Positions 8,809 through 60,612 are shown, numbered from the stretch's first letter. The stretch: 64,000 nt of DNA from a virus (IMGVR_UViG_3300029914_000004), one strand, 5' to 3'. Notes: a model not told the origin generated them from the sequence alone. Numbers and translations: made by a program.

Positions 8809-8941
8809 AAGATAATATGACCAAAACGCTAACCTATATTGTGTTGGCATCAAAATGGCGTCAATTTAAGAATGAAGATAAACTTTGGGAACTGTCTTTG
8901 GAAAATATTGAAAAGTTTCTTGAAGAAAGATTGGCAAAATA

Positions 8942-9175
8942 ATGGAATATAAAGAATTAGTATTATCTGTATATTCTGATGCTAAAATAGTAAACATTAC
9001 AGGACAGCATCGCCATGATTTACGAGATGTAACTCAAGAAAATAGCAATTTTGTTGGAATAAAGACCGCAAGAAAATATCTTGCTTATGGATACGCCTGC
9101 GGAAGCGAAAATGAACTTTGGCATCGAGTATGGATTAGAATACAGCAAGAATTGGAAAGAAAGCTTTCAAAATGA
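8942..9175 (+). CDS. family A small protein
   Basis: VLSVYSDA...LW..VW.RIQQELERKLSK; tandem paralogue. Confidence 0.7.
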   Translation: MEYKELVLSVYSDAKIVNITGQHRHDLRDVTQENSNFVGIKTARKYLAYGYACGSENELWHRVWIRIQQELERKLSK

Positions 9176-9405
9176 AATCTTATAAAGCAAGAATTTTACA
9201 AATTTATCCAGGTGCTTTATTAATGGCTTCTATGGACGGCGAAGGACTTGTTTATATTGTTGATACTTATAAAGGCGCTTTTTCTATTTTAATATTTCGG
9301 AATGCTTTTTATGATCAGAAGCTATTTGAAGAATATAAAACATCAATATGGAAGAGTTTATGGTTAAGACTTCAAGAAGAGTTGGAAAACAAACTAGCAG
9401 AATGA
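9172..9405 (+). CDS. family A small protein
   Basis: ILQIYPGA...IWKSLWLRLQEELENKLAE; ATGA overlap. Confidence 0.7.
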   Translation: MKSYKARILQIYPGALLMASMDGEGLVYIVDTYKGAFSILIFRNAFYDQKLFEEYKTSIWKSLWLRLQEELENKLAE

Positions 9406-9581
9406 AAGTTTTGTCAGTTTATCCAACTGCTATTCGTGCAGAATTATCTGGCTGGATAACCATTTGGGATGGAAATGGTACTGGAATGTTGGCAAAATGT
9501 TATCCATATGAAAAGACTAAAGCTTGGGATTTTGCTTGGGAAGAAGTTAAAAAAAGATTGGTGAAAAAATTGGAAAAATGA
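9402..9581 (+). CDS. family A small protein
   Basis: VLSVYPTA...AWDFAWEEVKKRLVKKLEK; start at ATG 9402 in ATGA overlap. Confidence 0.7.
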   Translation: MKVLSVYPTAIRAELSGWITIWDGNGTGMLAKCYPYEKTKAWDFAWEEVKKRLVKKLEK

Positions 9582-9802
9582 AAACTGCTGAAGATCGCGT
9601 TATAAAAATGTTTCGTACTGCTTATATTTCCATTCACGAATGGGAAGTGTCCATATGGAGTGGATGTGGAAAGGGACGTTTTGCAACAGTAAAACGACAG
9701 CCAATTCTCGGAGAATTATCATTGGCAGATGACACCAAAAAAGCTTGGGAAATGGCTTGGGATAAGATTCAAGAGGATTTAATACAGAAATTGTCTGAAT
9801 AA
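9578..9802 (+). CDS. family A small protein
   Basis: AWEMAWDKIQEDLIQKLSE; ATGA overlap. Confidence 0.7.
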   Translation: MKTAEDRVIKMFRTAYISIHEWEVSIWSGCGKGRFATVKRQPILGELSLADDTKKAWEMAWDKIQEDLIQKLSE

Positions 9803-9841
9803 TGGCAGGCAAGATGCTGAAAACAAACGATTTGTTTACTA

Positions 9842-9870
9842 TTGACATTTAGTGCAAGATTTGATATACT
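9842..9870 (+). promoter_or_regulatory. sigma70-type promoter (TTGACA-N17-TATACT)
   Basis: consensus hexamers with 17-nt spacer upstream of ligase; similar promoters near 4564, 8058, 8563, 23310, 25852, 29839, 30712, 32018, 35649, 37230, 40925, 54157, 57156, 58689, 62005, 62706, 63328. Confidence 0.85.
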
Positions 9871-9896
9871 TTATATAGTGAAAGAGGATATAAACG

Positions 9897-18475: not shown

Positions 18476-21400
18476 TTGAACGATTTTTTAGTTAACCCAC
18501 ACCCATCCCAAGTTACAGTATTTGAAGACAGCTTTTCTGAAGAAGTATGGTCAAATACATATAAAAATTATAAAGACAAAGATATTAATGATACTTTTAA
18601 TCGTGTTGCACAAGCAATTGCAAGCGTAGAAAAAACAGAAGATTTAAGAAAAGAATGGGCAGAAAAATTTTATGATATGATGTGTAATTTTTCTGTCGTT
18701 CCTGGTGGAAGAATTTTAGCAAATGCAGGTACAGAATTTCGTGGAACAAGTTTAATTAATTGTTTTGTTGGTCCAACTCCAAAATATGATTGCGATAGTT
18801 TATCTGGAATTTTAGAAGTTTTAAGAAGCCAATCAATTACTTTAAAGAGCGAAGGTGGGTGGGGAAAGAATTTTTCTTTTATCCGACCAAGAGGAACTTT
18901 TATTAAAGGAATTGGTGTTGAAACTCCTGGAGCAGTAAAGTTTATGGAACTATTTGACAAGAGTTCTGAAATTATTACAGCAGGTTCTGGAAAGAAAGCT
19001 TCAAATAAAAAAGCAAAAGGAAAAATAAGAAAAGGGGCGATGATGGGAATTTTGGATATTTCCCATCCTGACATTATTGAATTTATTACTATAAAGCAAA
19101 CTTCCAATAGATTATCTAAATTTAATCTTAGTATAAACTGCTCTGATAAATTTATGGATAAAGTATTGTTAGTTAGTAAATTAAAAAAAGAAAGTGGTAG
19201 CCAGGAACAAATCGATGAAATAACATGGGATCTAATTTTTCCAGATACAACTTATGAAAAATATAAAGAAGAATGGTGCGGCGATATTCAAGATTGGCAA
19301 GAAAAAAATTATCCAGTAATTGTTTATCAAACAGTAAAAGTAGATTGGTTATGGAACCTTATTACTCAATCAACTTATTCAAGAAATGAACCTGGAATTT
19401 TATTTTTAGATCGTGCAAATAAATTTAATGAATTAAATTATGCTGAAAAAATATTTGCAAGTAACCCATGTGTTACTTTGGATTCATGGGTAACAACAAG
19501 TCGCGGAGCAAAACAAGTTAAAGAATTATTGGGAATTCCATTTACTGCTATTGTTGATGGTATTTGTTGGAATAGTTCTGAAAAGGGATTTTTTGTATCA
19601 GGAAATAAGCCTATTTTAAAAATAAGTACAATAAATGGCTATACCTTAAAAGTTACAGAAAATCATAAAATAAAAATTTTAAGAAATAATAAAATTGATT
19701 GGATTGCTGCTGGAAAATTATCTATTGGTGATCAAATTTTTATTAATAATCATTCGTCAGTAGATGTTAAAATATCTGAAAAAAATGATGCTATTGGATA
19801 TGCGTTAGGATTGCTGGTTGGGGACGGAAATATTAGTGGAAAAAATGCTCATTTATGTTCTTGGGGAAATACAGAAGGAGTTAAAAATGTTCGTAATAAA
19901 GTTATGCAAGAATTGCTTCAATATGCTTCTCCAGCAAAAACTTTTAAAGGATGGCATGAAGTAAAAGGAAGAAATGAATATCGAATTCAATTTAAGGATT
20001 TGCATTCTTATGCAATATCATATGGACTTACTTCATCAAATAAACATGTAAATAAAACAATTGAAGAAGATATTTATATCAGCAAAGGATTTATTCGTGG
20101 GATGTTTGATGCTTATGGGTCTGTTCAAGGAAATAGAGATACAGGTTTGAGTATTCGTCTAAGTCAAAGCAATTTAGAAGATTTGCAAGCAATTCAACGA
20201 ATGTTAGTTAGATGGGGAATTGTTTCTACCATATATGAAAACAAGAGAGATGAATGTTTGAAGGATATGCCTGATGGAAAAGGTGGAAAAAAAGAATATC
20301 TATGTAAAGCAAATCATGAATTGGTATTATCTAAAAGTAATATAGAAAAATATTTAAATATTATTGGATTTTATGATTCAGATAAAAAAGAAAAATGTGA
20401 AAGACTTTTAACTGAATATGTTTATGGATTACATAAAGAAACATATTTAGCAGAAATATCCTCAATTGAAAATTTTCCAAATGAAATTGTAGCGGATTGC
20501 GAAATCCCTGGAATTAATGCATTTGATTGTAATGGATTGGTAATTTCAAATTGCGGAGAGCAATTACTTTCAAATGAAAATATTTGTTGTTTGGGATCTT
20601 TAAATCTAACTCAATTTATTAATAAAAATAGAACTGGATTTGATTTACATAAATTAGCGAAATATACAAAATATTTAATAAGATTTTTGGATAATGTAAA
20701 TGATTATTCAGATGCTCCTCTTCCAGAATACATTAATTCAATGAGAAATAAACGAAGAATTGGCGCAGGATTAATGGGATGGGGAAGCGCATTATTTATT
20801 CTCAAAGTCAAATATGGTTCCAAAGAATCAACAAAGCTAAGAACTGAAATTTTAAAAACTTATACATTGGCTGGTGTTGAAGCGTCATTGGATTTAGCTG
20901 ATGAAAAAGGAATGTTTAATTTATGTGAGCCAGAAAAACATGCCTTTAGTCCATATTGGGATAATATTGATTTGCCAGAAAATCTTCGTAAAAGAATTCT
21001 CAAGAATGGTATTAGAAATTCTTCACTATTTAGTTGCCAACCAACAGGAAATGCTGGTGTAACAGCTCAGATTGTATCGGGTGGAATTGAGCCCGTATTT
21101 ATGTCTGAATATATTAGAACAGTTATCGTATCTTCAACGCCGGATCATATTAAAGATGTAACTCCAAATTGGAATCAAGGAGAATGGGCTGAGACTAATA
21201 TGTTTAAATTCTCCCAAGAAGGAGATGAGCAAATTTTACGCGGTGTGGATAGTAATGGAGTTGTATATAAAATCGATAAAAATAGAGGATTAACAAAAGA
21301 AGTTCTATGTCAGGATTATGGAGTTAGATATTTAACTAAATTTGGAGAGTGGAATCCTTCTGCTGATTGGGCAGCAACAACTACTTCTTTATCAGTCAAA

Positions 21401-22147
21401 GATCATTTGGTTGAATTAGAGGGATTTGCAAAATATTTAGATAGCAGTGTATCAAAAACGATTAATATTCCCAATGATTATCTATTTGAAGATTTTCAAA
21501 ATATATATTTAGATGCATACAATACTGGGTATATCAAAGGATGTACCACATATCGTTCTGGATCAATGACTTCTGTTCTTTCAGCAGTTGATCAAAAAAA
21601 TGATGATATAGATGAAGAAGTTATTTTAGAAGATGTAAAATTGCCTGATAATATGTCTGCTGAAATGAAAGTTCTGCATGATCATGAAGGTGATAGTAGT
21701 CGTAAATGGTATGTAACGATTAGTTTGAATGAAAATAAAGCACCAGTGGCAATATTTGTTCAAACCAATGCAATGGAAAAATCAGTAACAACGAATGATG
21801 CTATTGAAAAATTATTTGCGTTGGCTAAAGTAAAAGGTATTCCAGAACAATATATAGAATCAACATTTAAAAAATGCAATAATGATTCTAATAGTGTTAA
21901 AATTGCTAGAGCAATCGGATTATTATTACGTCATGGAGTAAGAATCAAATATATTGTTGCTGAAATAGATAAAGTTGATGGCGTTACTTTTTCAAGTTTT
22001 CTATTTCATATTAAAAAGATGCTGGGAAGTTTTGTGAAAGATGGCGAAAAAATTGATGGGGCCAAATGCACAGAATGTAATGGTCAACTTGTTTATGAAT
22101 CAGGGTGCCAGAAATGCCTGCAATGTGGAAATTCAAAATGCGGATGA
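18476..22147 (+). CDS. nrdJ: class II (B12-dependent) ribonucleotide reductase with intein
   Basis: PGGRILANAG, NP|C-G-E split by intein, QPTGN, VSKTIN, GCTTYR; C-terminal TSCPD-like and CxxC..CxxC Zn ribbon; no nrdB-like gene in the window. Confidence 0.85.
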   Translation: MNDFLVNPHPSQVTVFEDSFSEEVWSNTYKNYKDKDINDTFNRVAQAIASVEKTEDLRKEWAEKFYDMMCNFSVVPGGRILANAGTEFRGTSLINCFVGPTPKYDCDSLSGILEVLRSQSITLKSEGGWGKNFSFIRPRGTFIKGIGVETPGAVKFMELFDKSSEIITAGSGKKASNKKAKGKIRKGAMMGILDISHPDIIEFITIKQTSNRLSKFNLSINCSDKFMDKVLLVSKLKKESGSQEQIDEITWDLIFPDTTYEKYKEEWCGDIQDWQEKNYPVIVYQTVKVDWLWNLITQSTYSRNEPGILFLDRANKFNELNYAEKIFASNPCVTLDSWVTTSRGAKQVKELLGIPFTAIVDGICWNSSEKGFFVSGNKPILKISTINGYTLKVTENHKIKILRNNKIDWIAAGKLSIGDQIFINNHSSVDVKISEKNDAIGYALGLLVGDGNISGKNAHLCSWGNTEGVKNVRNKVMQELLQYASPAKTFKGWHEVKGRNEYRIQFKDLHSYAISYGLTSSNKHVNKTIEEDIYISKGFIRGMFDAYGSVQGNRDTGLSIRLSQSNLEDLQAIQRMLVRWGIVSTIYENKRDECLKDMPDGKGGKKEYLCKANHELVLSKSNIEKYLNIIGFYDSDKKEKCERLLTEYVYGLHKETYLAEISSIENFPNEIVADCEIPGINAFDCNGLVISNCGEQLLSNENICCLGSLNLTQFINKNRTGFDLHKLAKYTKYLIRFLDNVNDYSDAPLPEYINSMRNKRRIGAGLMGWGSALFILKVKYGSKESTKLRTEILKTYTLAGVEASLDLADEKGMFNLCEPEKHAFSPYWDNIDLPENLRKRILKNGIRNSSLFSCQPTGNAGVTAQIVSGGIEPVFMSEYIRTVIVSSTPDHIKDVTPNWNQGEWAETNMFKFSQEGDEQILRGVDSNGVVYKIDKNRGLTKEVLCQDYGVRYLTKFGEWNPSADWAATTTSLSVKDHLVELEGFAKYLDSSVSKTINIPNDYLFEDFQNIYLDAYNTGYIKGCTTYRSGSMTSVLSAVDQKNDDIDEEVILEDVKLPDNMSAEMKVLHDHEGDSSRKWYVTISLNENKAPVAIFVQTNAMEKSVTTNDAIEKLFALAKVKGIPEQYIESTFKKCNNDSNSVKIARAIGLLLRHGVRIKYIVAEIDKVDGVTFSSFLFHIKKMLGSFVKDGEKIDGAKCTECNGQLVYESGCQKCLQCGNSKCG
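19469..20551 (+). mobile_element. 361-aa intein with LAGLIDADG endonuclease domain
   Basis: starts CVTLDSWV, ends GLVISN followed by Cys+1; blocks LGLLVGDG and RGMFDAYG. Confidence 0.9.
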
Positions 22148-22157
22148 AGGGGGAATT

Positions 22158-23030
22158 ATGGGTTGGACTCAAACTATGGATGGGGACTTTGTGTGGAATA
22201 CTATGAGAAAACCAAGAAAGAAATCTACAAAAAATCTGTGGGAGTTCATTTTTAATGAAAATCCCACAGAACAGGAAAAGTTAGAGGCTGTTAAACAAAA
22301 TGGTTTGCTGCTCGAATTTATTGAAAATCCTTCATATGAAATAATGACAGAAGCTGTACGACAAAATGGAATGGCGATTAGATTAATTGACAATCCAGAT
22401 GATGATTTAAAAATTGTAGCAGTTAAACAAAATGGTTATGTTTTAAAATTTATTGATATTCCAAATGATAAAATTATAAAAGAAGCAATAAAAAAGGATT
22501 ATATTCTAATTAAAACACAAAAAAATCCAAGTGAAGAAATTCAATTAATTGCTGTTAAAAAGAGCAAATCGGCATTTAAGTTGATTGGGAACCCAACAGA
22601 ATTGGTTCAAATTTATTGTGTTGAGAAAGAATCAAAGCTAGTTGAATATATAAGCAATCCGTCTATGGCAGTTCAACTAGCTTTGGTTAATAAAAATCCA
22701 TATGGTATTAGATATATTAAAAATCCACCAGAAGAAATTCAATTAGCTGCGCTGGCAAAAAACAAAAATGTATTAAAATTAATAAATAATCCCAGCGAAA
22801 ATATACAAATTATTATGGTTAAAAAATGTGGAAGTTCGCTTTCATTATTTCCAAATGCAAGTAAAGAAGTTCAAATGGCAGCGATCAACAAAGCTGCAAC
22901 AGCCATTAAATATGTTAAATTTCCAGATGAAGAATTACAAATGACTGCTGTGCAAAAAAAGAAAAGTGCATTGAATTTCATTAAACATCCAACTGCTGCT
23001 GTGAGAATGATGGCAAAAATAGGCTACTAA
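22158..23030 (+). CDS. 22-aa repeat (DUF4116-like) protein, diverged copy
   Basis: about 11 repeats AV.QNG..I.FI.NP.EE.Q; start set at ATG 22158. Confidence 0.75.
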   Translation: MGWTQTMDGDFVWNTMRKPRKKSTKNLWEFIFNENPTEQEKLEAVKQNGLLLEFIENPSYEIMTEAVRQNGMAIRLIDNPDDDLKIVAVKQNGYVLKFIDIPNDKIIKEAIKKDYILIKTQKNPSEEIQLIAVKKSKSAFKLIGNPTELVQIYCVEKESKLVEYISNPSMAVQLALVNKNPYGIRYIKNPPEEIQLAALAKNKNVLKLINNPSENIQIIMVKKCGSSLSLFPNASKEVQMAAINKAATAIKYVKFPDEELQMTAVQKKKSALNFIKHPTAAVRMMAKIGY

Positions 23031-25137: not shown

Positions 25138-25317
25138 AGGAGAAAATTTGGAACTAAATGATAAAACATTAGCTGAATTAGCAGAATATTTGCAAATGAG
25201 ATATGCTCGTTGCAATAAAAATATAGAGTTATTAGGGGACGTGCAAACTACATTGAGTTGGTTTACCCTTATATGGGAAAGAGATTTTTTCCGTGATAAA
25301 TTTTTGGAAAAATAATT

Positions 25318-25821
25318 ATGAATGAAAAAGAACAAATGGCTGCTGTTCGACAAGATGGTCGTGCAATTGAATACATCGACAATCCAAGCGAAGCTGTGCA
25401 ACTGGCTGCTGTTCAACAAAATTATCGTGCAATTCAATACATCGACAAGCCAAGCGAAGCTGTGCAAATGGCTGCTGTTCAAGAAACTAGTCGGGCAATT
25501 TGCTACATCGACAAGCCAAGCGAAGCTGTGCAACTGGCTGCTATTCAACAAAATGGTTGTGCAATTTACCACATCAGCAAGCCAAGCGAAGCTGTGCAAC
25601 TGGCTGCTGTTCAACAATATGGTCGTGCAATTCAATACATCAGGAATCCAAGCGAAGCTGTGCAAATGGCTGCTGTTCGACAAGATGGTCGTGCAATTGT
25701 ATTCATCGACAATCCAACTGAAGCCATGCAAATGGCTGCTATTCAACAAAATGGTAAGGCAATTGAATATATCAAGAAGCCAACAATTAATGTCAAATTA
25801 GTGGCTAAATTGGTGTCTTAA
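25318..25821 (+). CDS. 22-aa tandem-repeat protein (7 units of 66 nt)
   Basis: Q[ML]AA[VI]QQxGxAIxxIxxPSEAV repeats with near-identical nucleotide scaffold. Confidence 0.85.
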   Translation: MNEKEQMAAVRQDGRAIEYIDNPSEAVQLAAVQQNYRAIQYIDKPSEAVQMAAVQETSRAICYIDKPSEAVQLAAIQQNGCAIYHISKPSEAVQLAAVQQYGRAIQYIRNPSEAVQMAAVRQDGRAIVFIDNPTEAMQMAAIQQNGKAIEYIKKPTINVKLVAKLVS

Positions 25822-25898: not shown

Positions 25899-26228
25899 AT
25901 GACCATTGAATTGACTCGTGAAGGGATCAATGAACAGCTCAGAACGAATGATAGAGCAGTTGCTCGTGCTCTCATTGTAATCAACAACAATCAGACTTTT
26001 GATGAGCAAGCGTGTGAGCAAACCACGCATCACAATGGAACTGGATTTACCAGTTTTGACGCGAAAATGGGAACTTCAATGGCTAATTTCTATGTAAAGT
26101 ATTGCTATCTTTCGCCTAGGCAGTTGGCGTATTGGCGCAAACTTGACAAGAATGGAAACATTCGCATTGGCAAATATTGGCGGCAACTAGTTGACGCTGC
26201 AAATGCCAAGAAAAAGGTGGCTGTTTAA
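25899..26228 (+). CDS. conserved phage hypothetical protein
   Basis: RAL......QT.DEQ...HNG.GFT..DA...TS motif; promoter and RBS upstream. Confidence 0.65.
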   Translation: MTIELTREGINEQLRTNDRAVARALIVINNNQTFDEQACEQTTHHNGTGFTSFDAKMGTSMANFYVKYCYLSPRQLAYWRKLDKNGNIRIGKYWRQLVDAANAKKKVAV

Positions 26229-42865: not shown

Positions 42866-42871
42866 ATTTAT

Positions 42872-42976
42872 AGCCGTATAGCTCAATTGGTTCAGAGCAT
42901 TCCCCTTATTTAGGGCCTGTGCATCAGACCTTAAATAAGGGAAAGGTTGATGGTTCGATCCCATCTACGGCTACCA
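42872..42976 (+). tRNA. tRNA-Ile(TAT) with 27-nt anticodon-loop insert
   Basis: AGCCGTA/TACGGCT-ACCA; stem TTCCC/GGGAA; 34-nt loop 42905-42938. Confidence 0.75.
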
Positions 42977-42990
42977 CAAAGTTTAAATGT

Positions 42991-43051
42991 TGGCTTGTAG
43001 CATAATTGGCAATGTGTGACCCTGTTAAGGTCAAAGATGATGGTCCAGCCA
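42991..43051 (+). pseudogene. T-arm-deleted duplicate of tRNA-Asn(GTT)
   Basis: identical to 47275-47351 except GTTCGAGTCCCTCTGAG is replaced by T. Confidence 0.85.
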
Positions 43052-43062
43052 AAATTTAAAGT

Positions 43063-43181
43063 TTCGCTGTAGGGAAAATATACCCCGCTGCATGAGGCAG
43101 AAAGATATTGAGGGGCTGGTCAACGGCTATAGACGCCCAGTGAGTAAATATTTGATGGTGCAAATCCATCCGGCGATACCA
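43063..43181 (+). tRNA. tRNA-like element with shrunken anticodon loop and very large variable insert
   Basis: acceptor TCGCTG/CGGCGA + ACCA, T arm GATGG-TGCAAAT-CCATC, CTGC-ATGAG-GCAG arm. Confidence 0.5.
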
Positions 43182-43188
43182 ATTTTAT

Positions 43189-43323
43189 GGGATGGTAGCT
43201 CAGTAGAAGAGCAATGGCTATGAGGGGTAGTCTAGCGACGGTTAGATGAGACTCAAGTGCAAAAGTCATACGTCGAGAAGTCTGAAGGCCAAGGACATTG
43301 TGCAAATCCCTCTCATCCCATCA
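43189..43323 (+). tRNA. degenerate tRNA-like element with about 60-nt anticodon-loop insert
   Basis: GGGATGG/TCATCCC, D arm GCTC..GAGC, TGGC/GCCA stem; T stem poorly paired. Confidence 0.4.
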
Positions 43324-43395
43324 ATTTTAAAGAAAAGATGTTGGGTTCAATGGTCCGACTTCAAACTAACGTTAAGTCAAGTTTGAATAGTTTAA

Positions 43396-43469
43396 GCGGG
43401 GATAGTTTAAATAGTAGAATATCTGAGTTTCCGCTCAGAAGATGGGTTGCAAGTACCCTAACCGCTCCA
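43396..43469 (+). tRNA. degenerate tRNA-Gly(TCC)
   Basis: CTGAG-TTTCCG-CTCAG (6-nt loop); two acceptor mismatches; TCCA. Confidence 0.5.
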
Positions 43470-43480
43470 ATTTTATATAT

Positions 43481-43565
43481 GCGGGAGAAGCCTACTTGGT
43501 ATGGCACTGGTCTTCCAAACCAGAGATGAAAATCGCTGCGAGTTCAAATCTCGTCTCCCGCTCCA
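43481..43565 (+). tRNA. tRNA-Gly(TCC) with long variable arm
   Basis: GCGGGAG/CTCCCGC-TCCA; CT-TCC-AA; 14-nt variable arm. Confidence 0.9.
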
Positions 43566-43845
43566 TATTTATACATATGGAATAAAGGAAGAAAATTAAA
43601 ATGAAATATTGGTGTAAAAATTGTGAACATCTTCTGCCATTGAAGAACAATGAAAGAACAGAAAATTTCAAAGAATGGTGGATAGAAAATCGAGAACAAT
43701 TCAGAGAACTGCATCTCAATGGAGAGTGTGAAATAAAAACAACTCAGATACAGAAGGTGAATTTATATGCATAAACTTTTGTTTTTCTTAGCATTTGTTA
43801 TAATTGTATTTGTGGTGCATATGTTGAAGTGTAAATAAAGTTTGT

Positions 43846-43916
43846 CGCGGGGTGCAGGTTGCCGTTTCAGGCTCATAACCTTGAAATGTACGTGAGTTTC
43901 GATACTCCCTCCGCAT
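43846..43916 (+). tRNA. degenerate initiator-like tRNA-Met(CAT)
   Basis: CGCGGGG/CTCCGCA with C1:A72 mismatch, CT-CAT-AA; shortened D arm; no CCA. Confidence 0.45.
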
Positions 43917-43967
43917 CTTTTGAGCAGACACGCCGCCATGTTAATAACAAAAGATGCGTGTGAAAGT

Positions 43968-44190
43968 TTAAAATAATAATTTTTTAATTTCCTCAAATGC
44001 AGTATCAGGAGAATAAACACCATCATTAAATGATAAAACTTCCCAACCCGAATTTGTCAATTCTTTGATTTTTATTTTATCTCTGTTTTGAACTTGTTTT
44101 AAAGAAAAATTTTTAATTTTTAGTTGTTTGTAATGCCATGGTCCATTCCAAAGAATAGCAACTTTATAATCATCAAGAATAATTGTTTTG
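43968..44190 (-). pseudogene. inverted remnant of a Vsr/DUF559-like endonuclease C-terminus
   Basis: IILDDYKVAILWNGPWHY...QNRDKIK...GW.V; no credible N-terminus. Confidence 0.5.
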
Positions 44191-44304
44191 CATTGAAACC
44201 TCATATAAATAAAGATATGGCAGGACAAACTTGCAAAACCTCACAAGTGAACAAATATTCACAAGATATTTGTTCTTGCTGCCAATAGTATTTATCTTTA
44301 TTAA

Positions 44305-44375
44305 GGCACAGACAAGGATTTGCGCTCACCCTCATAAAGTGGTGCGAGTGGGATTATTCCCCACCTGTGCCACCA
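44305..44375 (+). tRNA. tRNA(CAT) Met/Ile2 with truncated D arm
   Basis: GGCACAG/CTGTGCC-ACCA; CT-CAT-AA; T-loop ATTATTC. Confidence 0.55.
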
Positions 44376-44757
44376 AAAATAACTAGGAGTTATCAAATGG
44401 CTTATTTACTTAAAAAAGGATATAAAATAGACAAAGGGATCAGAATATATGATAATGAAGAATCATTATTGCCTTGGTGTGATTTTAAAAATTGTAATAC
44501 ATTGGCGTCTCATAATGCTGATCAATATGTTGAGTTAAAATGCAATAAATGGTAGAATTGGTTATCATATCCAAAATTTTTATGCAAAGAACAGGAATTA
44601 ATGGGATGTGATCATCATCCAGTATCTTCAGAAATTGTTTATTTGGATGGACATTCAGAATTTTTTATTAAAATTCCACAAACAAGATGGCATAAACATA
44701 AATATGAGTTTATATTAGCTTTGATTTTTGCGGTACTTTGTGCGATAATTATTTAAG

Positions 44758-44786
44758 TTGACAAAAGATTTTAAAAGTTGTATAGT
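44758..44786 (+). promoter_or_regulatory. sigma70-type promoter
   Basis: TTGACA-N17-TATAGT. Confidence 0.8.
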
Positions 44787-44798
44787 AAAAGAATAGAG

Positions 44799-44869
44799 AT
44801 TTGCAGCACGCCGTAAATGTCTTATGACCTACCTCCAATTTGTTATAGACAACGATTCGTGTTGCAAAT
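44799..44869 (+). ncRNA. small three-way-junction RNA candidate
   Basis: ATTTGCAGCACG/CGTGTTGCAAAT closing stem with two inner hairpins. Confidence 0.45.
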
Positions 44870-44892
44870 AAAAGATATTGGTATAATGAGTA

Positions 44893-44963
44893 GTGCTTGT
44901 AGCTCAGTGGTAGAGCAGCCCCATTAAGAGGGCTGGTCGTTGGTTCGATTCCAACCAAGTATC
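44893..44963 (+). tRNA. tRNA, probably Leu(TAA) short-arm; anticodon uncertain
   Basis: canonical D and T arms; GCCCC-ATTAAGA-GGGCT with one mismatch; no CCA. Confidence 0.55.
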
Positions 44964-45058
44964 AAAGTTATACTAGGCGCAGATAGACCATAATTGGTTC
45001 GCGGCCATGTTGGGAACGTCTCGTGAAATCCATCGCGCCCGCGATCTGAAGTAAAGTT

Positions 45059-45213
45059 TGTGTTAGTTGCTGTATTATTAGCCGAAGGAGCAAGAGCACC
45101 AGATGGAAAACTGGAGATTTGGCATTACGCCAACCAATTGCGTAATGTGTCTGTGATCTAGCTAGGCGAGATGGGATTATCACTATTGGTAGATAACTCC
45201 ACTGACTAACACA
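45059..45213 (+). ncRNA. 155-nt multibranch RNA candidate
   Basis: TGTGTTAGT/ACTAACACA closing stem; CATTACGC/GCGTAATG, CCAG/CTGG, GTGAT/ATCAC helices. Confidence 0.5.
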
Positions 45214-45245
45214 ATTAGATATTAAAAAAAGTAGTGTCGCTGTAA

Positions 45246-45311
45246 GTATAATGTCGTCTAATGGAAGGATAGCGTGAACGCAAGATGCGAGTTCGACTCT
45301 CGCCTTATACT
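45246..45311 (+). ncRNA. tRNA-like RNA lacking an anticodon loop
   Basis: acceptor GTATAA/TTATAC, D-loop TAATGG, perfect T arm GCGAG-TTCGACT-CTCGC, anticodon arm only GCG-TGAA-CGC. Confidence 0.6.
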
Positions 45312-45368
45312 GAAGACACTTGAGAGTTTTCTTTAAACGAAAACTCTCCGCGATTAGTAATACAAGTA

Positions 45369-45478
45369 TGAAATGTCTGACTTGAAGCGCTCTCTGGCAA
45401 GGGCGTAAAGGCCAGATCGATGCAATATCCAAAGGCCAGAGTGCTGATGGAAGTGCAAAGTTCAAGTCAGACATTTCA
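45369..45478 (+). ncRNA. 110-nt rod-like RNA closed by a perfect 18-bp stem
   Basis: TGAAATGTCTGACTTGAA/TTCAAGTCAGACATTTCA; inner CTCTGGC/GCCAGAG. Confidence 0.55.
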
Positions 45479-45489
45479 GTAATTTTATC

Positions 45490-45615
45490 GGGGAGAAACT
45501 ATAGAGTTAGCTATAATGGGGAGAACTAAAGCGATGGCTGGCGATGGCCCAGAAGGAGCTACTTTAGTTTTATGATCTAGAAATAGTTGCTGGTTTCAAC
45601 ACTAGCGCCCCGCCA
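45490..45615 (+). ncRNA. CCA-ended tRNA-mimic candidate
   Basis: GGGG/CCCC-G-CCA; T-like arm GCTGGT-TTCAAC-ACTAGC; AACTAAAG/CTTTAGTT helix. Confidence 0.45.
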
Positions 45616-45698
45616 ATTTAGTAGTGACATTTGTTAGGCAGAGGTTAACGGTTTAGGGCACTCTGCCTGATGATGGAAAGAAATATACTAAAAAGACT

Positions 45699-45911
45699 GT
45701 GCCGAACGAAATATATGAAGCACTACTTGAATATATTGAAGAGTACAACCTTGATTGTGCTGACAATTTTCGATATTCTCCAAAAAATGATCCAGAAGGA
45801 ATGGATGAATATTTAACTATTTCTCAACGTGGGTGTTGTGGTCGTGCTGACTTTTTAGCATGGGAAAATAATGGGCAAGAGTGGGTTATTGGTTGTAATT
45901 ATGGACATTAA
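45699..45911 (+). CDS. small hypothetical protein
   Basis: GCCG..D...G..W.IGCNYGH. Confidence 0.55.
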   Translation: MPNEIYEALLEYIEEYNLDCADNFRYSPKNDPEGMDEYLTISQRGCCGRADFLAWENNGQEWVIGCNYGH

Positions 45912-45931
45912 ATTTAACAAAAAAGGAAAAT

Positions 45932-46450
45932 ATGATCACATTAGAACAATGGTTAAAAGCAATTAAGTATAGAATCACTGAGGGATCAGATTATAATTGG
46001 GAAAGCTATGGACCAAATGCATATAGTTTGGATTATTGGGATCAACTCCACAATGGAGTTGACACTTCAATAATTATCGATAAATTAACTGGAATTGTTT
46101 ATCAATGCGAAGTTTGTGATTATGAAAAGAATGTTGCATATCGCATTATCAATCCAGCCTTTAAAGACAGTCATATTGGAGAAGCTGAGCAGAAAAATCT
46201 TGATCATGGTTATGTTGATGAAGCTTGGGAAAATGTTCCATATTGTGACTCAGAAGTTGATGATTTCCTAGAGAAACTACATGCCATTGTCAATCATGAA
46301 TCATACGATACTCGTTCAAGTGTTTCACTAGATTTAGATGAAAAAACAACATTTACATTGATGAAGATGGCGCATGAAAAAGATATAACTTTTAATCAAT
46401 TAATTTGTAATATTTTAAACGAGGTGTTTTTGAATCCAAATACAACATAA
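45932..46450 (+). CDS. conserved phage protein
   Basis: MITLEQW..AI.YRITEGS.Y.W; C-terminal L..L.KMAHE.DITFNQ. Confidence 0.7.
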   Translation: MITLEQWLKAIKYRITEGSDYNWESYGPNAYSLDYWDQLHNGVDTSIIIDKLTGIVYQCEVCDYEKNVAYRIINPAFKDSHIGEAEQKNLDHGYVDEAWENVPYCDSEVDDFLEKLHAIVNHESYDTRSSVSLDLDEKTTFTLMKMAHEKDITFNQLICNILNEVFLNPNTT

Positions 46451-46462
46451 CTAGATTTATAT

Positions 46463-46540
46463 GGCTCTATAGCTTAATTAGATTAAAGCACTTCACCGTC
46501 AATGAAGGAGATGGGGATGCAACTTCCCTTGGAGCCGCCA
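46463..46540 (+). tRNA. tRNA-Asp(GTC), C33
   Basis: CTTCA-CCGTCAA-TGAAG; G73, CCA. Confidence 0.85.
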
Positions 46541-46679
46541 ATTTTTAAATAGTCTGGTTAAGTCCAGCAAGCGCAGGATACGCGAGAGTTAATGACTCTT
46601 CCACCAGCGCCTTAAATTTAGGAGCAAACTGCCAGAAAATTAGGAATTAGTTCTACTGCTATTAGAAAAAGATTAAAAC

Positions 46680-46755
46680 GGCAACTTAACACTGATGGTC
46701 AGTGTGCTAGACTGAAAATCTAGAAAACTCAGATCGTTACTGAGAGTTGCCACCA
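46680..46755 (+). tRNA. tRNA-Phe(GAA)
   Basis: CTAGA-CTGAAAA-TCTAG; T-loop ATCGTTA; ACCA. Confidence 0.85.
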
Positions 46756-47158
46756 TAAGTTTAGGAGTATTATGACAACAATAACAATTAAGGAAGCAGC
46801 GATTCTTTCTTATCTGTCAAAACAGCCAATTGAATCTGAAAGAATTGAATTAACAAAACGCTTGGGTGTAGAAGCTAAAGAACTTGCTATTTCTTTGATA
46901 AATAAAAAATAATATGAAAATTGAATTAGATTTGACTGAAGATGAAATAAAAATGCTCAAAAAGCTTACAACTACTGGTGGAAATAGAGCCGCAGTTTGC
47001 AGACCAGTTCATGATTCAGTATATTCAAAAATTTGCAAGGCAATAAAGTTAGAAAAAGAAAATCAAGAACCAGTTAAATTTCTTGGATTTTCTGGACCAT
47101 TGATGATTTTTCTGATTATCCATTATTAGCAGAAAATCATAAGAAATAAAATTAAGTT

Positions 47159-47261
47159 CATTCAGTAATTCATTTATCATAGTAGCGAAGTAACGCATGA
47201 GTAAAATCGGAAAAGGTTGTTAGCCAATCCATGATAAAATTCTAGATGGAATTACTGAATG
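47159..47261 (+). ncRNA. about 100-nt rod-like RNA candidate
   Basis: CATTCAGTAATTC/GAATTACTGAATG and TTATCAT/ATGATAA stems. Confidence 0.45.
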
Positions 47262-47274
47262 TTAGTTTAAATGT

Positions 47275-47351
47275 TGGCTTGTAGCATAATTGGCAATGTG
47301 TGACCCTGTTAAGGTCAAAGATGATGGGTTCGAGTCCCTCTGAGCCAGCCA
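47275..47351 (+). tRNA. tRNA-Asn(GTT)
   Basis: TGACC-CTGTTAA-GGTCA; G73, CCA. Confidence 0.85.
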
Positions 47352-47379
47352 AAAATTTAGTTGTTGAAGGGTGTGCCGA

Positions 47380-47769
47380 ATGGCAAGTATGACAAAAGAT
47401 CAAATTAGATATAATGATCCTACAACTGGAAGAAAAAAATATCTTATTAAAAAGGTAACAGATCGCAGAATTACAATTCGCAAAAAAGTAGTAGAAATTT
47501 TGGGAGGAAAGTGTTTGCTATGCGGTTATGATAAGTGTGGAAATGCATTATGCGCACATCATCTTGATCCAAAAGAAAAAGAGTTTGGTTTAAGTTATAA
47601 AGGTTTGTGTAGGAGTTGGATTAAAGTTCTTTCTGAATTAAAGAAATGCGTTTTGCTTTGCGCTAATTGTCATGCAGAAGTGCATGATGGATTGATTATT
47701 CCTAATGAATTAATAATACAAACTAGAAAACGTGTAGAGTGTGAAGAAAGTTTAGTTGTTCCTTCGTAG
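47380..47769 (+). CDS. HNH endonuclease
   Basis: GGKCLLCGY.KC..AL..HHLDP..K.F...ELKKCVLLCANCHAEVH; stop overlaps the next tRNA; flanked by TTTAGTTGTT direct repeats (47356, 47751). Confidence 0.9.
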   Translation: MASMTKDQIRYNDPTTGRKKYLIKKVTDRRITIRKKVVEILGGKCLLCGYDKCGNALCAHHLDPKEKEFGLSYKGLCRSWIKVLSELKKCVLLCANCHAEVHDGLIIPNELIIQTRKRVECEESLVVPS

Positions 47770-47885
47770 CTCAATTGGTAGAGCGGGCGGCTGTGCGAGA
47801 TAGATAATGGAATTTAACCAGTTCAAATCTGGAATCTCGAAAAGTAACCGTCAGGTTGGGGGATCGTGGCCCTCCGAAGGAGCCA
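47760..47885 (+). tRNA. tRNA-Asn(GTT) with 50-nt insert inside the anticodon
   Basis: TCCTTCG/CGAAGGA-GCCA; GGCGG/CCGTC; CTGT[47795-47844]TAA. Confidence 0.75.
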
Positions 47886-47890
47886 AAAAT

Positions 47891-48028
47891 TATAGTGGTG
47901 TGTTTTGAACGGATAACAAGTCAGACTCTATGTGTATACAACGGTGATATGACACTGATTGGGATGGCCGACTGTTGCGAACGGGAATATGACCGTGAAG
48001 TGCCCCAAAGTCTGTGTCTGCCACTATA
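47891..48028 (+). ncRNA. 138-nt structured RNA candidate
   Basis: TATAGTGG/CCACTATA closing stem; CAGAC/GTCTG pairing; GC-richer than flanks. Confidence 0.45.
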
Positions 48029-48381
48029 AATAATTTTATACAATTGTCAGTCAATGATTAGGAAAATATTTCAACAAGGAGAAAATATGGTATATATAAA
48101 TAATAACGGAGTTGTTTTAACAGGAACGGATGCGTGGCCTGTGAATCCATACAAGTCCGAGTCTACAACAAAAATTTTTGAAAATAATGGAGTATCAGAT
48201 TTTACGACGGTACATTTTATAGCAGATGATCCTGGTATTCCGAGAAAATCAGCACGATATAATAATAAACAGAAATTAATTTCAATTTGTGAAAATAATA
48301 ACATATTATATGAAGTCGTTCCTGACGAGTAAAATTATATTTTCTGAAGTTAACATACTATAATTAATCATAAATAATAGT

Positions 48382-48612
48382 ATGAATTATAGTAAACTAT
48401 ATAAAAATATCATTAATAATGCGAAGAATAGAAACAATAATTTATGTTATATTGAATCTCATCATATAATTCCGCGATCTTTGGGTGGAGAGAATGGCAG
48501 TAATAATTTAATAAATCTTACTGCGATAGAACATTTTATATGTCATTTCTTATTGACAAAAATGTATAAAATAATACCGAATTGGTCTAATGGCAATGAC
48601 GCTTCGCTTTGA
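48382..48612 (+). pseudogene. truncated HNH endonuclease running into tRNA-Gln
   Basis: Y.E.HHIIPRSLGG.N...NL..LTA.EHFICH.LL.K, then tRNA sequence. Confidence 0.75.
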
Positions 48613-48650
48613 ACGAAGAAGCACAGATTCGATTTCTGTATTCGGTGCCA
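48576..48650 (+). tRNA. tRNA-Gln(TTG)
   Basis: CTTCG-CTTTGAA-CGAAG; ACCGAAT/ATTCGGT-GCCA. Confidence 0.85.
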
Positions 48651-48895
48651 AAATATTATGAAAAATAAACCAAAAGTTGGACAAAAAATTAGATTAAATA
48701 AATTTGGAGTTAGGCAAATTTATAATAGTTCTATAGCTCCGTCTGGTTTACTGAGGCAAGTGTTTACAATTACTGAAGTAGACGAAGAATCAATGACAGA
48801 GCCAGAAAAACTTGGATGATTGAAGTTGATGATCCAGAGTTAAATCAATTTATGCTTGACAACTGGTGTTTTGATTTAGTGTCATAAATATTAGT

Positions 48896-49384
48896 ATGAG
48901 ATTAAATGAATTTCAAAATAACACAACTTCTACTGAAGTGACCAATTTTGTTAAAGATATAATGCAAATATTGGGTTTATCATCATTTAAATCTCCAGTA
49001 ATTATATATGACGATAATTTTCCTGAAAAAACATTGGGCAATTGTTCATGGTATATTGGAGAAAAAGAAGTTGAAATTCACATTAATATAAAAGTTTTAG
49101 ATTTCAATGACGAAATGATTTTATTTAGGATTTTGGCACATGAATTGTGTCATATGGCAGAATATTTATTGTATTGGATTCCTACTTTAGAAAAACAATT
49201 AAAAATTGTTCATGGAAAAGTTGGATATGAAAAAGAAAAATTTAGAGATTGGTGTAATAACGAAATACAAAAAGCAAGTCATGGACCTCAATGGCAACAT
49301 TTTGCTGATTTATTAAATAGTGAAGTTCCAAATTTTGTTACAAAAACATCAGACAAAAGTTATGATTTAACCAGCAAACAGTAG
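48896..49384 (+). CDS. SprT-like zinc metalloprotease
   Basis: ILAHELCH...HGPQW; MRLNE N-terminus; TAAATA upstream. Confidence 0.75.
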   Translation: MRLNEFQNNTTSTEVTNFVKDIMQILGLSSFKSPVIIYDDNFPEKTLGNCSWYIGEKEVEIHINIKVLDFNDEMILFRILAHELCHMAEYLLYWIPTLEKQLKIVHGKVGYEKEKFRDWCNNEIQKASHGPQWQHFADLLNSEVPNFVTKTSDKSYDLTSKQ

Positions 49385-49521
49385 TAAGCAGAATAACAGA
49401 TAACAAAACTGTAATATGTAAAAAGTAGTTTGCTAAATTTGGAGAACGACTGTAGCCTGATAAAAAGTCGTGGCAGCTTGGAGAGACAGCGAAAATAATT
49501 TAATATAAATGAAGATTTATC

Positions 49522-49550
49522 TTGACAAAGGATAAATAAAGATGTATACT
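49522..49550 (+). promoter_or_regulatory. sigma70-type promoter
   Basis: TTGACA-N17-TATACT. Confidence 0.85.
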
Positions 49551-49580
49551 ACAAGAGTAGTCAGAAATTTGGAGAATAAA

Positions 49581-49655
49581 ATGACATTCAGACATACACA
49601 TATCGAGCCAAGTGACCCACGCATTACAGTCATGGAACCCCGTTTCTGTGTCTGA
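49581..49655 (+). CDS. 24-aa peptide MTFRHTHIEPSDPRITVMEPRFCV
   Basis: GGAG RBS 6 nt upstream, own promoter and terminator. Confidence 0.45.
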   Translation: MTFRHTHIEPSDPRITVMEPRFCV

Positions 49656-49676
49656 AGCTAGATAGTTTGTATTATC

Positions 49677-49708
49677 AAACCTTCTGGCAAATGTCAGAAG
49701 GTTTTTTG
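49677..49708 (+). terminator. intrinsic terminator
   Basis: AAACCTTCTG/CAGAAGGTTT followed by T run. Confidence 0.75.
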
Positions 49709-53943: not shown

Positions 53944-54153
53944 ATGACGAACAAAGAATTTGTTCAATCACTATATCCGCAAGCATATTGTATTCATGCA
54001 ACGTGGCTTCCTTTTAAATCGTATGTAATATGGTGTGTTAATTTTAATAATTATCTCCATAATATGACAAATTATTGCTCAACTGAAAATGATGCATGGA
54101 AACAAGCGGCAATAAAAATTCATGAAAAATTAATTCAAAAATTAGAAAAATAA
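53944..54153 (+). CDS. family A small protein
   Basis: FVQSLYPQA...DAWKQAA..IHEKLIQKLEK. Confidence 0.7.
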   Translation: MTNKEFVQSLYPQAYCIHATWLPFKSYVIWCVNFNNYLHNMTNYCSTENDAWKQAAIKIHEKLIQKLEK

Positions 54154-58554: not shown

Positions 58555-58566
58555 CAAGGAATAAAT

Positions 58567-58643
58567 TGAGGCATAGTTTAATTGGCCAAAACATTCGGCT
58601 CTGACCCGAAAGATTCTAGGTTCGACGCCTAGTGCCTCAGCCA
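58567..58643 (+). tRNA. tRNA-Gln(CTG)
   Basis: TTCGG-CTCTGAC-CCGAA; TGAGGCA/TGCCTCA-GCCA. Confidence 0.9.
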
Positions 58644-59076
58644 AAAATTAGAAAGGAAATATTAAATAGGTTTGGGTTGCATTCTTTCTTGACATTTAAT
58701 TTAAAAGTTGATATAATCATTATATGAAAAGCTATCAATGGGCAAATACTCCAAAAATAGCATGAAAACTCATGGTTAGAGATTGAAATTGAATTATTAA
58801 GAAAGTTAGAGAAATGACTAAAATAGATAATGAAATTTTACAATCAATTATTTATTCTCCATCTTTAGAAGAATTTCATGGAGATTGGGATCCTCAATGT
58901 AGGTGGGTTAGTAGAATAACATTAATCCAACTTAAATATATGATAAAACAAAATTGGATTATATCCAAGTTTGGGATGTACAAAGCAAGTAATAGTTTTG
59001 CCTATTTTAATGGATACACAGAAGGAATTGCGTTTACTCCAGATAAAAACACTGAGCTTTTAATAAAATTAATGAG

Positions 59077-59847
59077 ATGAATTGGATTATTCAAGATTCG
59101 ATGACTTGGGCGGCATTGCAAAATAATTGCAATCCTCTCATTACTGCTCTTCAAAAATTGAATAAGAAATTCCATACTTGCGGAGTGATTCCATTTGATA
59201 ATGTAATTACTGGTATAGAAAATATTGATTTATCAAAATCTACTATGTTTTATGGCGGAACATTGCTTCCAATATTGGCCAAAAAATTGAATACTAATTT
59301 GGAAATCTTTTGGGAAGATGAATGGTTCTATCCTGCAATATGGGCAGCAAATAGAAATGATATGCTTAATCAAGAAATTACAGAAAGAACTATTGGTGAT
59401 TTAAAAACTAATTGGATTTTCGAGCCCACATTTATTAAATCAAAAGAAGTAAAAGAATTAACTGGAATGGTATTAGAAGGTGAAGATAAAGATTGGTGGC
59501 TAAAAGAATATTCTGATTTAACGTCTGATGTAGAAATATGTTGCTCTCCTGCACAAAATATAGAAAAAGAATGGAGATTCTGGATCATTGACGGAAATAT
59601 AGTTACTGGATCACAATATAAAAGGAATGGATGTTTAGCAATAAAATCTCCAATTGAAAACAGTGTTTTCAATAAAGCAATAGAATTATCCAATAGCTGG
59701 CTGCCAAACCCAAATATTGTAATGGATATTGCTGAAATGCGGAATGGAACTTTCAAAGTTGTTGAATTTAATTCAATTCATTCAAGTGGATTTTACAATG
59801 CTAATGTTGAGAATTTCATCAATGCAATGGAAAATAAATATGACTGA
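59077..59847 (+). CDS. ATP-grasp protein (DUF4343/R2K-like)
   Basis: FIKS, K..TGMV, EWRFWI.DG.IVTGSQY, VMDIA, VVEFN..HSSGFY. Confidence 0.8.
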   Translation: MNWIIQDSMTWAALQNNCNPLITALQKLNKKFHTCGVIPFDNVITGIENIDLSKSTMFYGGTLLPILAKKLNTNLEIFWEDEWFYPAIWAANRNDMLNQEITERTIGDLKTNWIFEPTFIKSKEVKELTGMVLEGEDKDWWLKEYSDLTSDVEICCSPAQNIEKEWRFWIIDGNIVTGSQYKRNGCLAIKSPIENSVFNKAIELSNSWLPNPNIVMDIAEMRNGTFKVVEFNSIHSSGFYNANVENFINAMENKYD

Positions 59848-60064
59848 CAAGCAATTTGTAAAATCATTTTATCCAAACGTAAAATTATGTAAAGCAACAA
59901 AATTTTATAGAATGAATTTTCCAAAAGATTTAAATATTTATTGTATCTATCACTATGATTATACAATATTTTTTGATTTACCGTGGGAAAAAACTTCAAA
60001 ATTAACATGGAAGCACGCTAGAGAAAAAGTTGAAAATAAATTAATTAAAAAATTATCTTATTAA
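59840..60064 (+). CDS. family A small protein
   Basis: FVKSFYPNV...TWKHA.EKVENKLIKKLSY. Confidence 0.7.
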   Translation: MTDKQFVKSFYPNVKLCKATKFYRMNFPKDLNIYCIYHYDYTIFFDLPWEKTSKLTWKHAREKVENKLIKKLSY

Positions 60065-60076
60065 CCAGGAAAAAAC

Positions 60077-60367
60077 ATGAATATACAAGAGCAGATTCGT
60101 AATATATATCCAAATGCAGTCTTAATTAAAGATTGTCATAATTATGGAAAATTGGAGATAAATTTAAATTACATTGTATTACACGATGTAATTCCATCAG
60201 AAAATATTAGTAGCAAAATTAATGATGAAATAATTTTAGATTTCATGCAAATTAGAAATAAAACAGAAATACATCCTTTATCAACATGGCAATCAACATC
60301 TGAAGAAGCATGGCAAGAAGCATGGAGATTAATTCAATCTAAAATGGAATCAAAATTAGCATCATGA
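60077..60367 (+). CDS. family A small protein
   Basis: IRNIYPNA...EAWQEAW..IQSKMESKLAS. Confidence 0.7.
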   Translation: MNIQEQIRNIYPNAVLIKDCHNYGKLEINLNYIVLHDVIPSENISSKINDEIILDFMQIRNKTEIHPLSTWQSTSEEAWQEAWRLIQSKMESKLAS

Positions 60368-60612
60368 CTTTAGAAGAAAATATACAATTTGTACGAGCAA
60401 TGTATCCAGATGCAATTGCTATTAAAGGAATCAGTAGGTATGCAATTATAACTATTTCTCAAAGAACACTAGAAGAAATTGAAAATTATAAACATACTGA
60501 ATTAACCTCACAAACCTATGAAATTAGCAGATGGGTTAAAACCATTGATGAAGCTTGGAATGACTCTGCGTATTGCTTAAATAAGAGATTAGAAGATAAA
60601 CTTGCATATTAA
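60364..60612 (+). CDS. family A small protein
   Basis: FVRAMYPDA...EAWNDSA..LNKRLEDKLAY. Confidence 0.7.
   Translation: MTLEENIQFVRAMYPDAIAIKGISRYAIITISQRTLEEIENYKHTELTSQTYEISRWVKTIDEAWNDSAYCLNKRLEDKLAY

Follow-up and report, generated by a model that had tools for sequence, protein, structure and literature searches.

Why should some twenty small proteins of one virus, drawn from families with no evident kinship, all end in nearly the same way? The question is raised by a 64,000-nucleotide stretch of DNA (hereafter the window) comprising bases 19,536–83,535 of the 127,373-bp IMG/VR virus contig IMGVR_UViG_3300029914_000004. An original prediction, made from the sequence alone, had noticed a Lys-Leu pair (K-L) at the fourth- and third-last positions (-4/-3) of many products and had read this tail as a common C-terminal address label. 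Here, we report that the tail is far commoner than expected and recurs in other phages, and that the evidence on balance, a protein model included, points to a structural helix end more than to an appended label. The contig has a G+C content of 33%, carries nearly all of its genes on the + strand and is estimated by CheckV to be 49% complete; the full phage genome is therefore probably ~260 kb. Genes were called on the whole contig with a purpose-written, crude caller that combined a codon log-odds score, a bonus for a ribosome-binding site (RBS) and greedy tiling, which yielded 248 genes, 230 of them encoding at least 40 amino acids (aa).

K-L occupied -4/-3 in 35 of these 230 proteins, compared to 1.7 expected from the internal frequency of KL (binomial P about 4e-34, per gene), so that about 15% of the contig's genes, or roughly one in six, carry the common tail. 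When the last 20 residues of each protein were shuffled, K-L fell at -4/-3 in 2.6 proteins on average and never in more than 11, and KL at any other offset from -2 to -15 occurred only 0–9 times. With each sequence-independent family counted once, the tail was present in 16 of 197 families against 1.5 expected (P about 4e-12), of which one or two may be chance. The same caller applied to the early 50 kb of phage T4 gave the tail in 1 of 83 genes; the tail is therefore not a general property of ORFans (orphan open reading frames, ORFs) in AT-rich phages. An AT-rich proteome that is rich in Lys, Leu, Ile and Glu could in principle place K-L near helix ends with no selection at all, and the endings encoded at 60633–61250 (DTKLKK) and, on the minus strand, at 43968–44204 (KKLLF), which lack the upstream hydrophobic pattern described below, are what such an account would predict for the ~1.5 families expected. 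However, the register-specific excess, per gene and per family, the shuffles and the T4 control refute chance for the tail set as a whole, and we give it next to no weight.

The endings listed in the original prediction were all found in place, including the decayed copies ending in ERLAK and RKLEK and the AKIGY ending at 23030. The span it had given, 8817–60612, did contain tails but proved too narrow. The window holds 20 of the 35 tail proteins, two further tail-bearing ORFs of the largest family (9172–9405 and 59729–60064) were missed by the gene caller, and more tail arrays lie beyond the window at 88.1–88.6 kb, 104.5–107.1 kb, 118.8 kb and 121.4–122.7 kb of the genome. Proteins longer than 130 aa seldom bear the tail (6 of 89, mostly repeat proteins), which agrees with the observation that enzymes and virion-size proteins do not end this way. 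The hydrophobic residue noted upstream of K-L was also recovered: 28 of the 35 tail proteins have Leu at -7, and 29 have one of Ile, Val, Met and Leu at -6, while -10 is frequently Asn or Asp and -9 frequently Glu, so that the tail reads, from its residues, as a capped amphipathic helix of two to three turns. Leu stands at -3 in 59 proteins, three times background, and 35 of these have Lys directly before it. The last residue (-1) is usually S, E, K, R or Q and the one before it (-2) usually E, S or A, and both positions vary freely in this phage.

A conserved ending could also reflect the DNA and not the peptide, if the last codons were kept because the gene that follows, and overlaps them in the coupled arrays, needs them for ribosome binding or re-initiation; AAR-TTG-GAR would then supply a Shine-Dalgarno-like GGA(G) core and NNA-TGA an ATGA overlap. 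Many junctions are indeed ATGA or TAATG overlaps, TTG encodes the tail Leu somewhat more often than Leu elsewhere (17 of 34 codons vs 26% genome-wide, P 0.003), a TCA-TGA ending is dominant in L007, one of two other phage contigs that carry homologs (L006 and L007, see below), and a body-less 3' end of a family-A gene persists just upstream of a start codon. Nevertheless, all six Leu codons are used (TTG 17, TTA 10, CTT 2, CTG 2, CTC 2 and CTA 1), as are both Lys and both Glu codons, while the amino acids stay fixed; in L006 and L007 the same residues are written with TTA, TTG, CTG, CTC or CTA, and with GAA or GAG. The TTG excess owes much to recent DUF4116 paralogs, which contribute five of the 17 codons. 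A start codon lay no more than 12 nt downstream of 17 of 28 small tail genes, compared to 51 of 112 other small genes (P 0.2), and the other 11 keep their tail with no start in that distance. Given this full range of Leu codons, and a rate of coupling that does not exceed that of the other small genes, selection is, judging by codon choice, on the tail peptide and not on the DNA. A nucleotide-level constraint is largely refuted by this synonymous-codon pattern and seems to us very improbable: it could explain the last residue, which the ATGA/TAATG overlaps probably influence through the A-ending codon before TGA, but neither K-L nor the upstream hydrophobic pair.

Clustering with BLAST and hidden Markov models (HMMs) sorted the tail proteins into families A (8 genes and 2 remnants), B (7 genes), C (8 genes, outside the window), D (2) and E (2), DUF4116 repeat proteins (5 with the tail) and several singletons. 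Comparison of the in-genome family alignments with hhalign detected similarity at the tails alone, and none once the last 8 columns had been removed; an alignment of 125 family-A sequences, compared in the same way with families B and C, aligned 6–7 residues at a probability of 1–5%. The HMM built from this richer family-A set did not find families B–E in the phage proteome, and the homologous C-terminal domain common to A and B that would have refuted the original prediction was thus not seen in these comparisons, so that the tail is, as had been proposed, common to families that are otherwise unrelated by these methods. Families A, B, D and E and the singletons had no match in Pfam or PHROGs. 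Single-sequence searches of a 5.8-billion-protein set with families A and B returned solely the query proteins themselves, and ESM-Atlas searches with families C and D were uninformative.

Family A is where the role of the tail can be seen most closely. When 1.84 billion representative proteins were searched with its profile, 220 clusters were retrieved at E ≤ 1e-3, from which 145 usable homologs of other phages, with mutual identity below 50%, were taken. The ending K-L-x-x was present in 96 of these 145 and the same register in 120, which shows the tail to be conserved in other phages; the consensus ending is AWxxAWxxIQxxM[L/I]xKLE[S], and ~10–15% of the homologs have additional residues beyond the motif. 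Searches of the PDB by sequence and profile gave no related solved structure, and a single search of the literature found no description of the family. An AlphaFold2 model of one 69-residue member, based on the 125-sequence alignment, had a predicted local distance difference test score (pLDDT) of 93.8, with 91 in its last block. DSSP assigned helix to residues 3–10, strands to 15–18, 27–32 and 38–40, and helix to 48–68, which predicts a compact alpha1-beta1-beta2-beta3-alpha2 domain in which the tail forms the last turn of a 21-residue C-terminal helix. The conserved columns are V7, Y11, P12, A14, A51, W52 (99%), A55, W56, I59, K66 (85%) and L67 (94%), the tail Leu L67 being among five columns conserved at 90% or more, whereas residues 15–46, the beta-sheet and its loops, are hypervariable. 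On a helical wheel at 100 degrees per residue, W52, W56, I59, M63 and L67 lie within about 60 degrees of each other, K66 sits on the flank of this face beside A55 and I59, and the variable positions 65 and 69 are off the face. In the modelled domain, the conserved tail residues would thus face the core and pack on the sheet and helix 1.

A structural search of 48,161 PDB chains, independent of Foldseek, placed double-stranded RNA-binding domains (dsRBDs) in nearly all of its top ~25 rows, including Loquacious dsRBD3, Thermotoga maritima RNase III, ADAR1 dsRBD3 and PKR, with Z scores of 5–6.3 and root-mean-square deviations of 2.1–3.5 Å over 54–66 residues, although a Z below 8 may reflect a mere common arrangement. 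DRBM domains also recurred in the Foldseek lists, at E values of 0.17 or worse. Two candidate relatives were rejected: the top Foldseek match, SPO1 Acb4, was too weak (E 0.17), and the PDB profile match 9W3G_G (E 0.31) is VP1, an RNA polymerase inhibitor that is a three-helix bundle (bioRxiv 10.64898/2025.12.17.695035) and thus differs in fold.

Family A has the topology and size of a dsRBD (PF00035), in particular of the non-RNA-binding 'type B' domains (Loquacious dsRBD3, ADAR1 dsRBD3, Staufen dsRBD5 and PACT D3), and in the Pfam consensus dsRBD helix 2 likewise finishes on a hydrophobic anchor, a conserved ...L..L that lies slightly short of the domain end. Unlike in dsRBDs, none of the 125 family-A members matched PF00035 (dsrm) at E ≤ 0.01, and the RNA-binding motifs KKxAK and GPxH are absent from the column profile, in which helix 2 begins T-E-x-x-A-W and the loop region, like the rest of the beta-sheet, is hypervariable. 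Helix 2 is also longer than in most matched dsRBDs, many alignments stopping at model residue 61–66, and the genes stand in arrays of roughly 15–25 tandem copies. Given these modest scores, the fold is best described as dsRBD-like; membership of the dsRBD family is not claimed, because both the Pfam profile match and the RNA-binding motifs are absent.

These arrays were seen when two family-A homologs were traced to their phage contigs, L006 (116 kb, 35% G+C) and L007 (39% G+C), where both lie in tandem arrays with typically ATGA-overlapping junctions and nearly every gene ends in M[L/I]xKLES. Counts of tails and listed gene ends in the stretches that were fetched gave roughly 15–20 paralogs in L006 and roughly 20–25 in L007. 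With their conserved first and last helices around a hypervariable beta-sheet, these arrays look like a diversified binder library. Long tandems of genes of 65–100 aa, roughly 15–25 copies per stretch, occupy L006:880-11103 and L007:167-10073; each array has a gene resembling IF-1 (PF01176) embedded in it and a conserved protein of ~400 aa as its neighbour. Neither the IF-1-like gene nor the neighbour (397 aa) was found in the half-complete contig studied here. One L006 gene (8894-9109) encodes a 71-aa protein with two predicted transmembrane segments that ends in AFLRKLES, and the DNA of its tail is identical to that of an L007 family-A tail at 21 of 24 bases, so that it is a possible case of 3'-end capture.

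The other families give a less detailed picture. The family-B model had a pLDDT of 70.5 and placed the tail in a helix (residues 66–75) that follows three strands and is the best-modelled part of the protein; apart from Met1, the only invariant residues are L70, I71 and L74. Structural matches reached a Z of 3.6 or less, which gives no convincing fold. DUF7205, suggested by ESM-Atlas (score 0.87), was discarded, being unconfirmed by hmmscan at E up to 10, and a family-B protein scanned against viral contigs found no relatives. In L001, a related contig, relatives of family B keep the tail in two cases (KLTQ and KLCE) and have lost it in two (…EEALLQKC and …KEEALT), and a family-B-like body in L006 ends in EALIRKLES. 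The copy at 34381–34545 (HKLEA) has lost its normal N-terminus, while a related population carries an intact form of 67 aa (P0007, starting MKDKNGKELKVGD); the family-B array therefore includes decaying members. Outside the window, a 236-aa protein with no K-L tail (genome 114638–115348) matches the family-B HMM at E 1e-7, so that the family-B body is also a domain of a larger protein. Family C has a strand-strand-strand-helix pattern, and one of its eight members matches the RNase H1 N-terminal / Cauli_VI domain (PF01693) at E 0.008 and 16.8 bits, below the cut-off of 21.

The repeat proteins are arrays of 22-residue DUF4116 (PF13475) units, and the one at 25318–25821 scores 68.1 bits against a cut-off of 24.9. 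Half a repeat, in diverged form, caps these proteins and makes up their tail; in this cap, which is specific to the copies in this phage, ...V-Q-L-A-A-V-Q-Q has turned into V-K-L-V-A-K-L-L. Among other genes, the ending differs between close orthologs: L001:106-279 and L001:1397-1711 end in KLLS and RLEQ, and their orthologs at 25148–25315 and 26938–27258 of the window in FLEK and KRGE, so that, by sequence comparison, K-L-type endings are gained or lost between this phage and a diverged relative.

The dense, small, fast-evolving and unannotated early-type genes around the tail families, with their overlapping stops and starts and their duplication, decay and recombination of cassettes, resemble the hyperplastic regions of T4-type phages; unlike the early T4 region, which has no common C-terminal motif, one peptide ending here spans many families. 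A short terminal peptide common to unrelated cargo is also the hallmark of cargo-address systems such as the T4 capsid targeting sequence, encapsulin cargo-loading peptides and ssrA/ClpX degrons. The capsid targeting sequence of T4 is N-terminal and is cleaved off, the prohead protease site being L/I-x-E, encapsulin cargo peptides sit on flexible linkers and have a core of the G-S-L type, and signals of the ClpX, Tsp and PDZ kinds depend on non-polar residues at the very end, which in ssrA/ClpX or Tsp degrons are the last two or three of an accessible, unstructured terminus. The K-L tail differs from all of these in lying inside a structured helix, in its polar last residues and, in family A, in side chains that would face the core. 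The features of an ssrA/ClpX/Tsp degron were not found, as the last residues are polar and the tail is helical in both the family-A and the family-B models; nor were those of T4-type capsid targeting, as the motif is C-terminal and no N-terminal peptide is common across the families. The proposal of a degron or packaging signal gained no computed support. The wider idea of an appended label serving one sorting system also fared poorly, since the family-A tail is the conserved last turn of a helix that would face the core and -2 and -1 are free to vary.

A less specific form of the idea is that the tail is a portable recognition helix, a short C-terminal docking motif through which many small proteins with little else in common bind a single partner from phage or host (for example an adaptor, a protease or chaperone, the polymerase or the capsid interior) and that has been spread by recombination at array junctions. 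We regard this as possible, if doubtful. It would account for 15–16 sequence-independent families that share a tail and are alignable at the tail alone, for the very strong conservation of Lys at a fixed distance from the free C-terminus, for the remodelling of the DUF4116 cap towards K-L where the DUF4116 proteins of other phages end otherwise, for the L006 membrane protein and family-B-like body that carry the KLES of adjoining family-A genes, and for the gain or loss of the ending between L001 and this phage. It is harder to reconcile with the placement of the conserved tail residues on the presumably core-facing side of a confidently modelled helix, with the freedom of -2 and -1, with the extended family-A homologs, which a reader of the free carboxylate could not tolerate, and with polar last residues of a kind not known from ClpX, Tsp or PDZ-type signals; furthermore, no candidate partner gene was found on the 49%-complete contig. 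A fuller version, in which the helix end is a module transferred by 3'-end fusion to unrelated small early proteins, repeat and membrane proteins among them, in a clade of large environmental phages and docks all of them to one partner, strikes us as rather unlikely.

We therefore favour, with slightly better than even confidence, the reading in which the tail, [L/M]-[I/L/V]-x-K-L-x-x-COOH, makes up the last two turns of a C-terminal amphipathic helix that is part of the folded core in several small, fast-evolving families. This reading is preferred because the family-A tail is helical, is modelled with confidence, appears to face the core and is conserved across hundreds of distant homologs, and because -2, -1 and the free end, where a C-terminal reader would make contact, vary and 10–15% of the family-A homologs are extended. 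Within each family, the tail is among the slowest-evolving segments, beside a hypervariable middle. Several observations weigh against this preference. A generic structural role does not readily account for the Lys before Leu in 35 of 59 proteins, nor for a conservation of K66 that exceeds that of M63 and L64, its presumably buried neighbours. In the L006 membrane protein, the helix would find no beta-sheet body to pack on. Common descent of A, B and C is assumed, and no homology beyond the tail was detectable by BLAST/HMM clustering or hhalign; their terminal helices also differ in length (~21, ~10 and ~15 residues). The DUF4116 cap leaves its own repeat consensus exactly at the positions that create K-L, and the DUF4116 proteins of Salicola phage SCTP-2, Agrobacterium phage Atu_ph07 and a spring-water podovirus end differently. 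Finally, the core-facing orientation derives from helical periodicity and model confidence, and a confident model is available for family A only.

If the helix-end reading is correct, the tail families would have expanded within a ~260-kb uncultured phage as closely packed tandem arrays, in which translation is often coupled. In each protein, a conserved Trp-Trp-Ile-Met stripe would pack on the beta-sheet and helix 1, Leu at -3 would be the final hydrophobic anchor that closes the core, and Lys at -4, on the flank of this face, would pack its aliphatic chain and cap the helix end. Two further residues would finish the last turn, and the chain could then stop, as nothing would be needed past the last anchor and the stop lies against the start of the following gene or overlaps it. 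The hypervariable beta-sheet would be the working surface and the tail the scaffold. The ending could be common to the families in either of two ways: they may be diverged members of one beta-beta-beta-alpha superfamily whose helix end evolves most slowly, or ORFs in the arrays may acquire, by fusion, the 3' ends left behind by neighbours that have decayed. Raw material for such 3'-end capture is at hand in the L006 AFLRKLES tail and in the body-less family-A end at 58761–58817, whose TGA stop overlaps the ATG of the gene at 58814–59080.

Table 1. Tail-bearing genes, arrays and remnants in the window (positions counted from its first base).
Position	Strand	Feature	C-terminal ending	Evidence or remark
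5282–5710	+	142-aa protein	NKLGE	Absent from the original prediction's list
8817–8942	+	Short family-A copy, 41 aa	ERLAK	Family-A HMM, E 0.001–0.004
8942–9802	+	Four-gene family-A tandem with ATGA overlaps		Family-A profile, E 1e-11 to 1e-16
8942–9175	+	Family-A gene	RKLSK	In the 8942–9802 array
9172–9405	+	Family-A gene	NKLAE	In the 8942–9802 array
9348/9360–9581	+	Family-A gene	KKLEK	In the 8942–9802 array
9578–9802	+	Family-A gene	QKLSE	In the 8942–9802 array
22041–23030	+	DUF4116-like repeat ORF, 329 aa	AKIGY	In another frame than the ribonucleotide reductase gene, overlapping its last ~100 nt
25318–25821	+	DUF4116 repeat protein	NVKLVAKLVS	Pfam DUF4116, E 5e-19
26228–26938	+	Singleton, 236 aa	SKLEK	L001 ortholog ends SKLEQ
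29885–30100	+	Family-B gene, 71 aa	YKLGQ	
30745–31182	+	DUF4116 repeat protein	NVKLVAKLLS	Repeat dissection
32838–33221	+	Singleton, 127 aa	EKLMR	
33221–34545	+	Six-gene family-B array	WKLAQ (33436), YKLER (33657), WKLER (33888), ICILEN (34103), YKLER (34343), HKLEA (34545)	Gene ends in brackets
53944–54153	+	Family-A gene, 69 aa	QKLEK	Protein used for modelling (AlphaFold2)
58761–58817	+	In-frame family-A 3'-end remnant, 18 codons, with neither body nor start	...LLRKLEK	
58814–59080	+	Singleton, 88 aa	IKLMR	
59729–60612	+	Three family-A genes: 59729–60064, 60077–60367, 60364–60612	KKLSY, SKLAS, DKLAY	

Among the identifiable genes of the window are those for an NAD-dependent ligase, ribonucleotide reductase (RNR), nicotinamide phosphoribosyltransferase, a radical-SAM protein and an HNH endonuclease; the remaining genes are mostly small and unannotated, and positions 40700–49700 are poor in ORFs and low in coding score. 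A megablast search with the RNR gene against 50,697 phage records returned no match. In the large subunit of RNR (18476–22147, 1223 aa), matches to RNR profiles are limited to residues 41–336 and 693–1222, and the insert of ~350 residues between them is possibly an intein or a homing-endonuclease domain.

Small ORFans account for much of the gene content of large phages, and hardly any have been characterised. What emerges here is a group of small ORFan families, dsRBD-like and arranged in hyperplastic arrays, that have no entry in Pfam or PHROGs and are joined by a common K-L helix end, which offers a simple sequence handle for locating such genes. Should the label reading prove true instead, phages would turn out to have a sorting code of a new kind, written at the C-termini of proteins throughout the phage. 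Family A is the largest group and is widespread, and its conserved helices framing a hypervariable beta-sheet would suit a diversified library of binders, for example against targets in host defence or host takeover.

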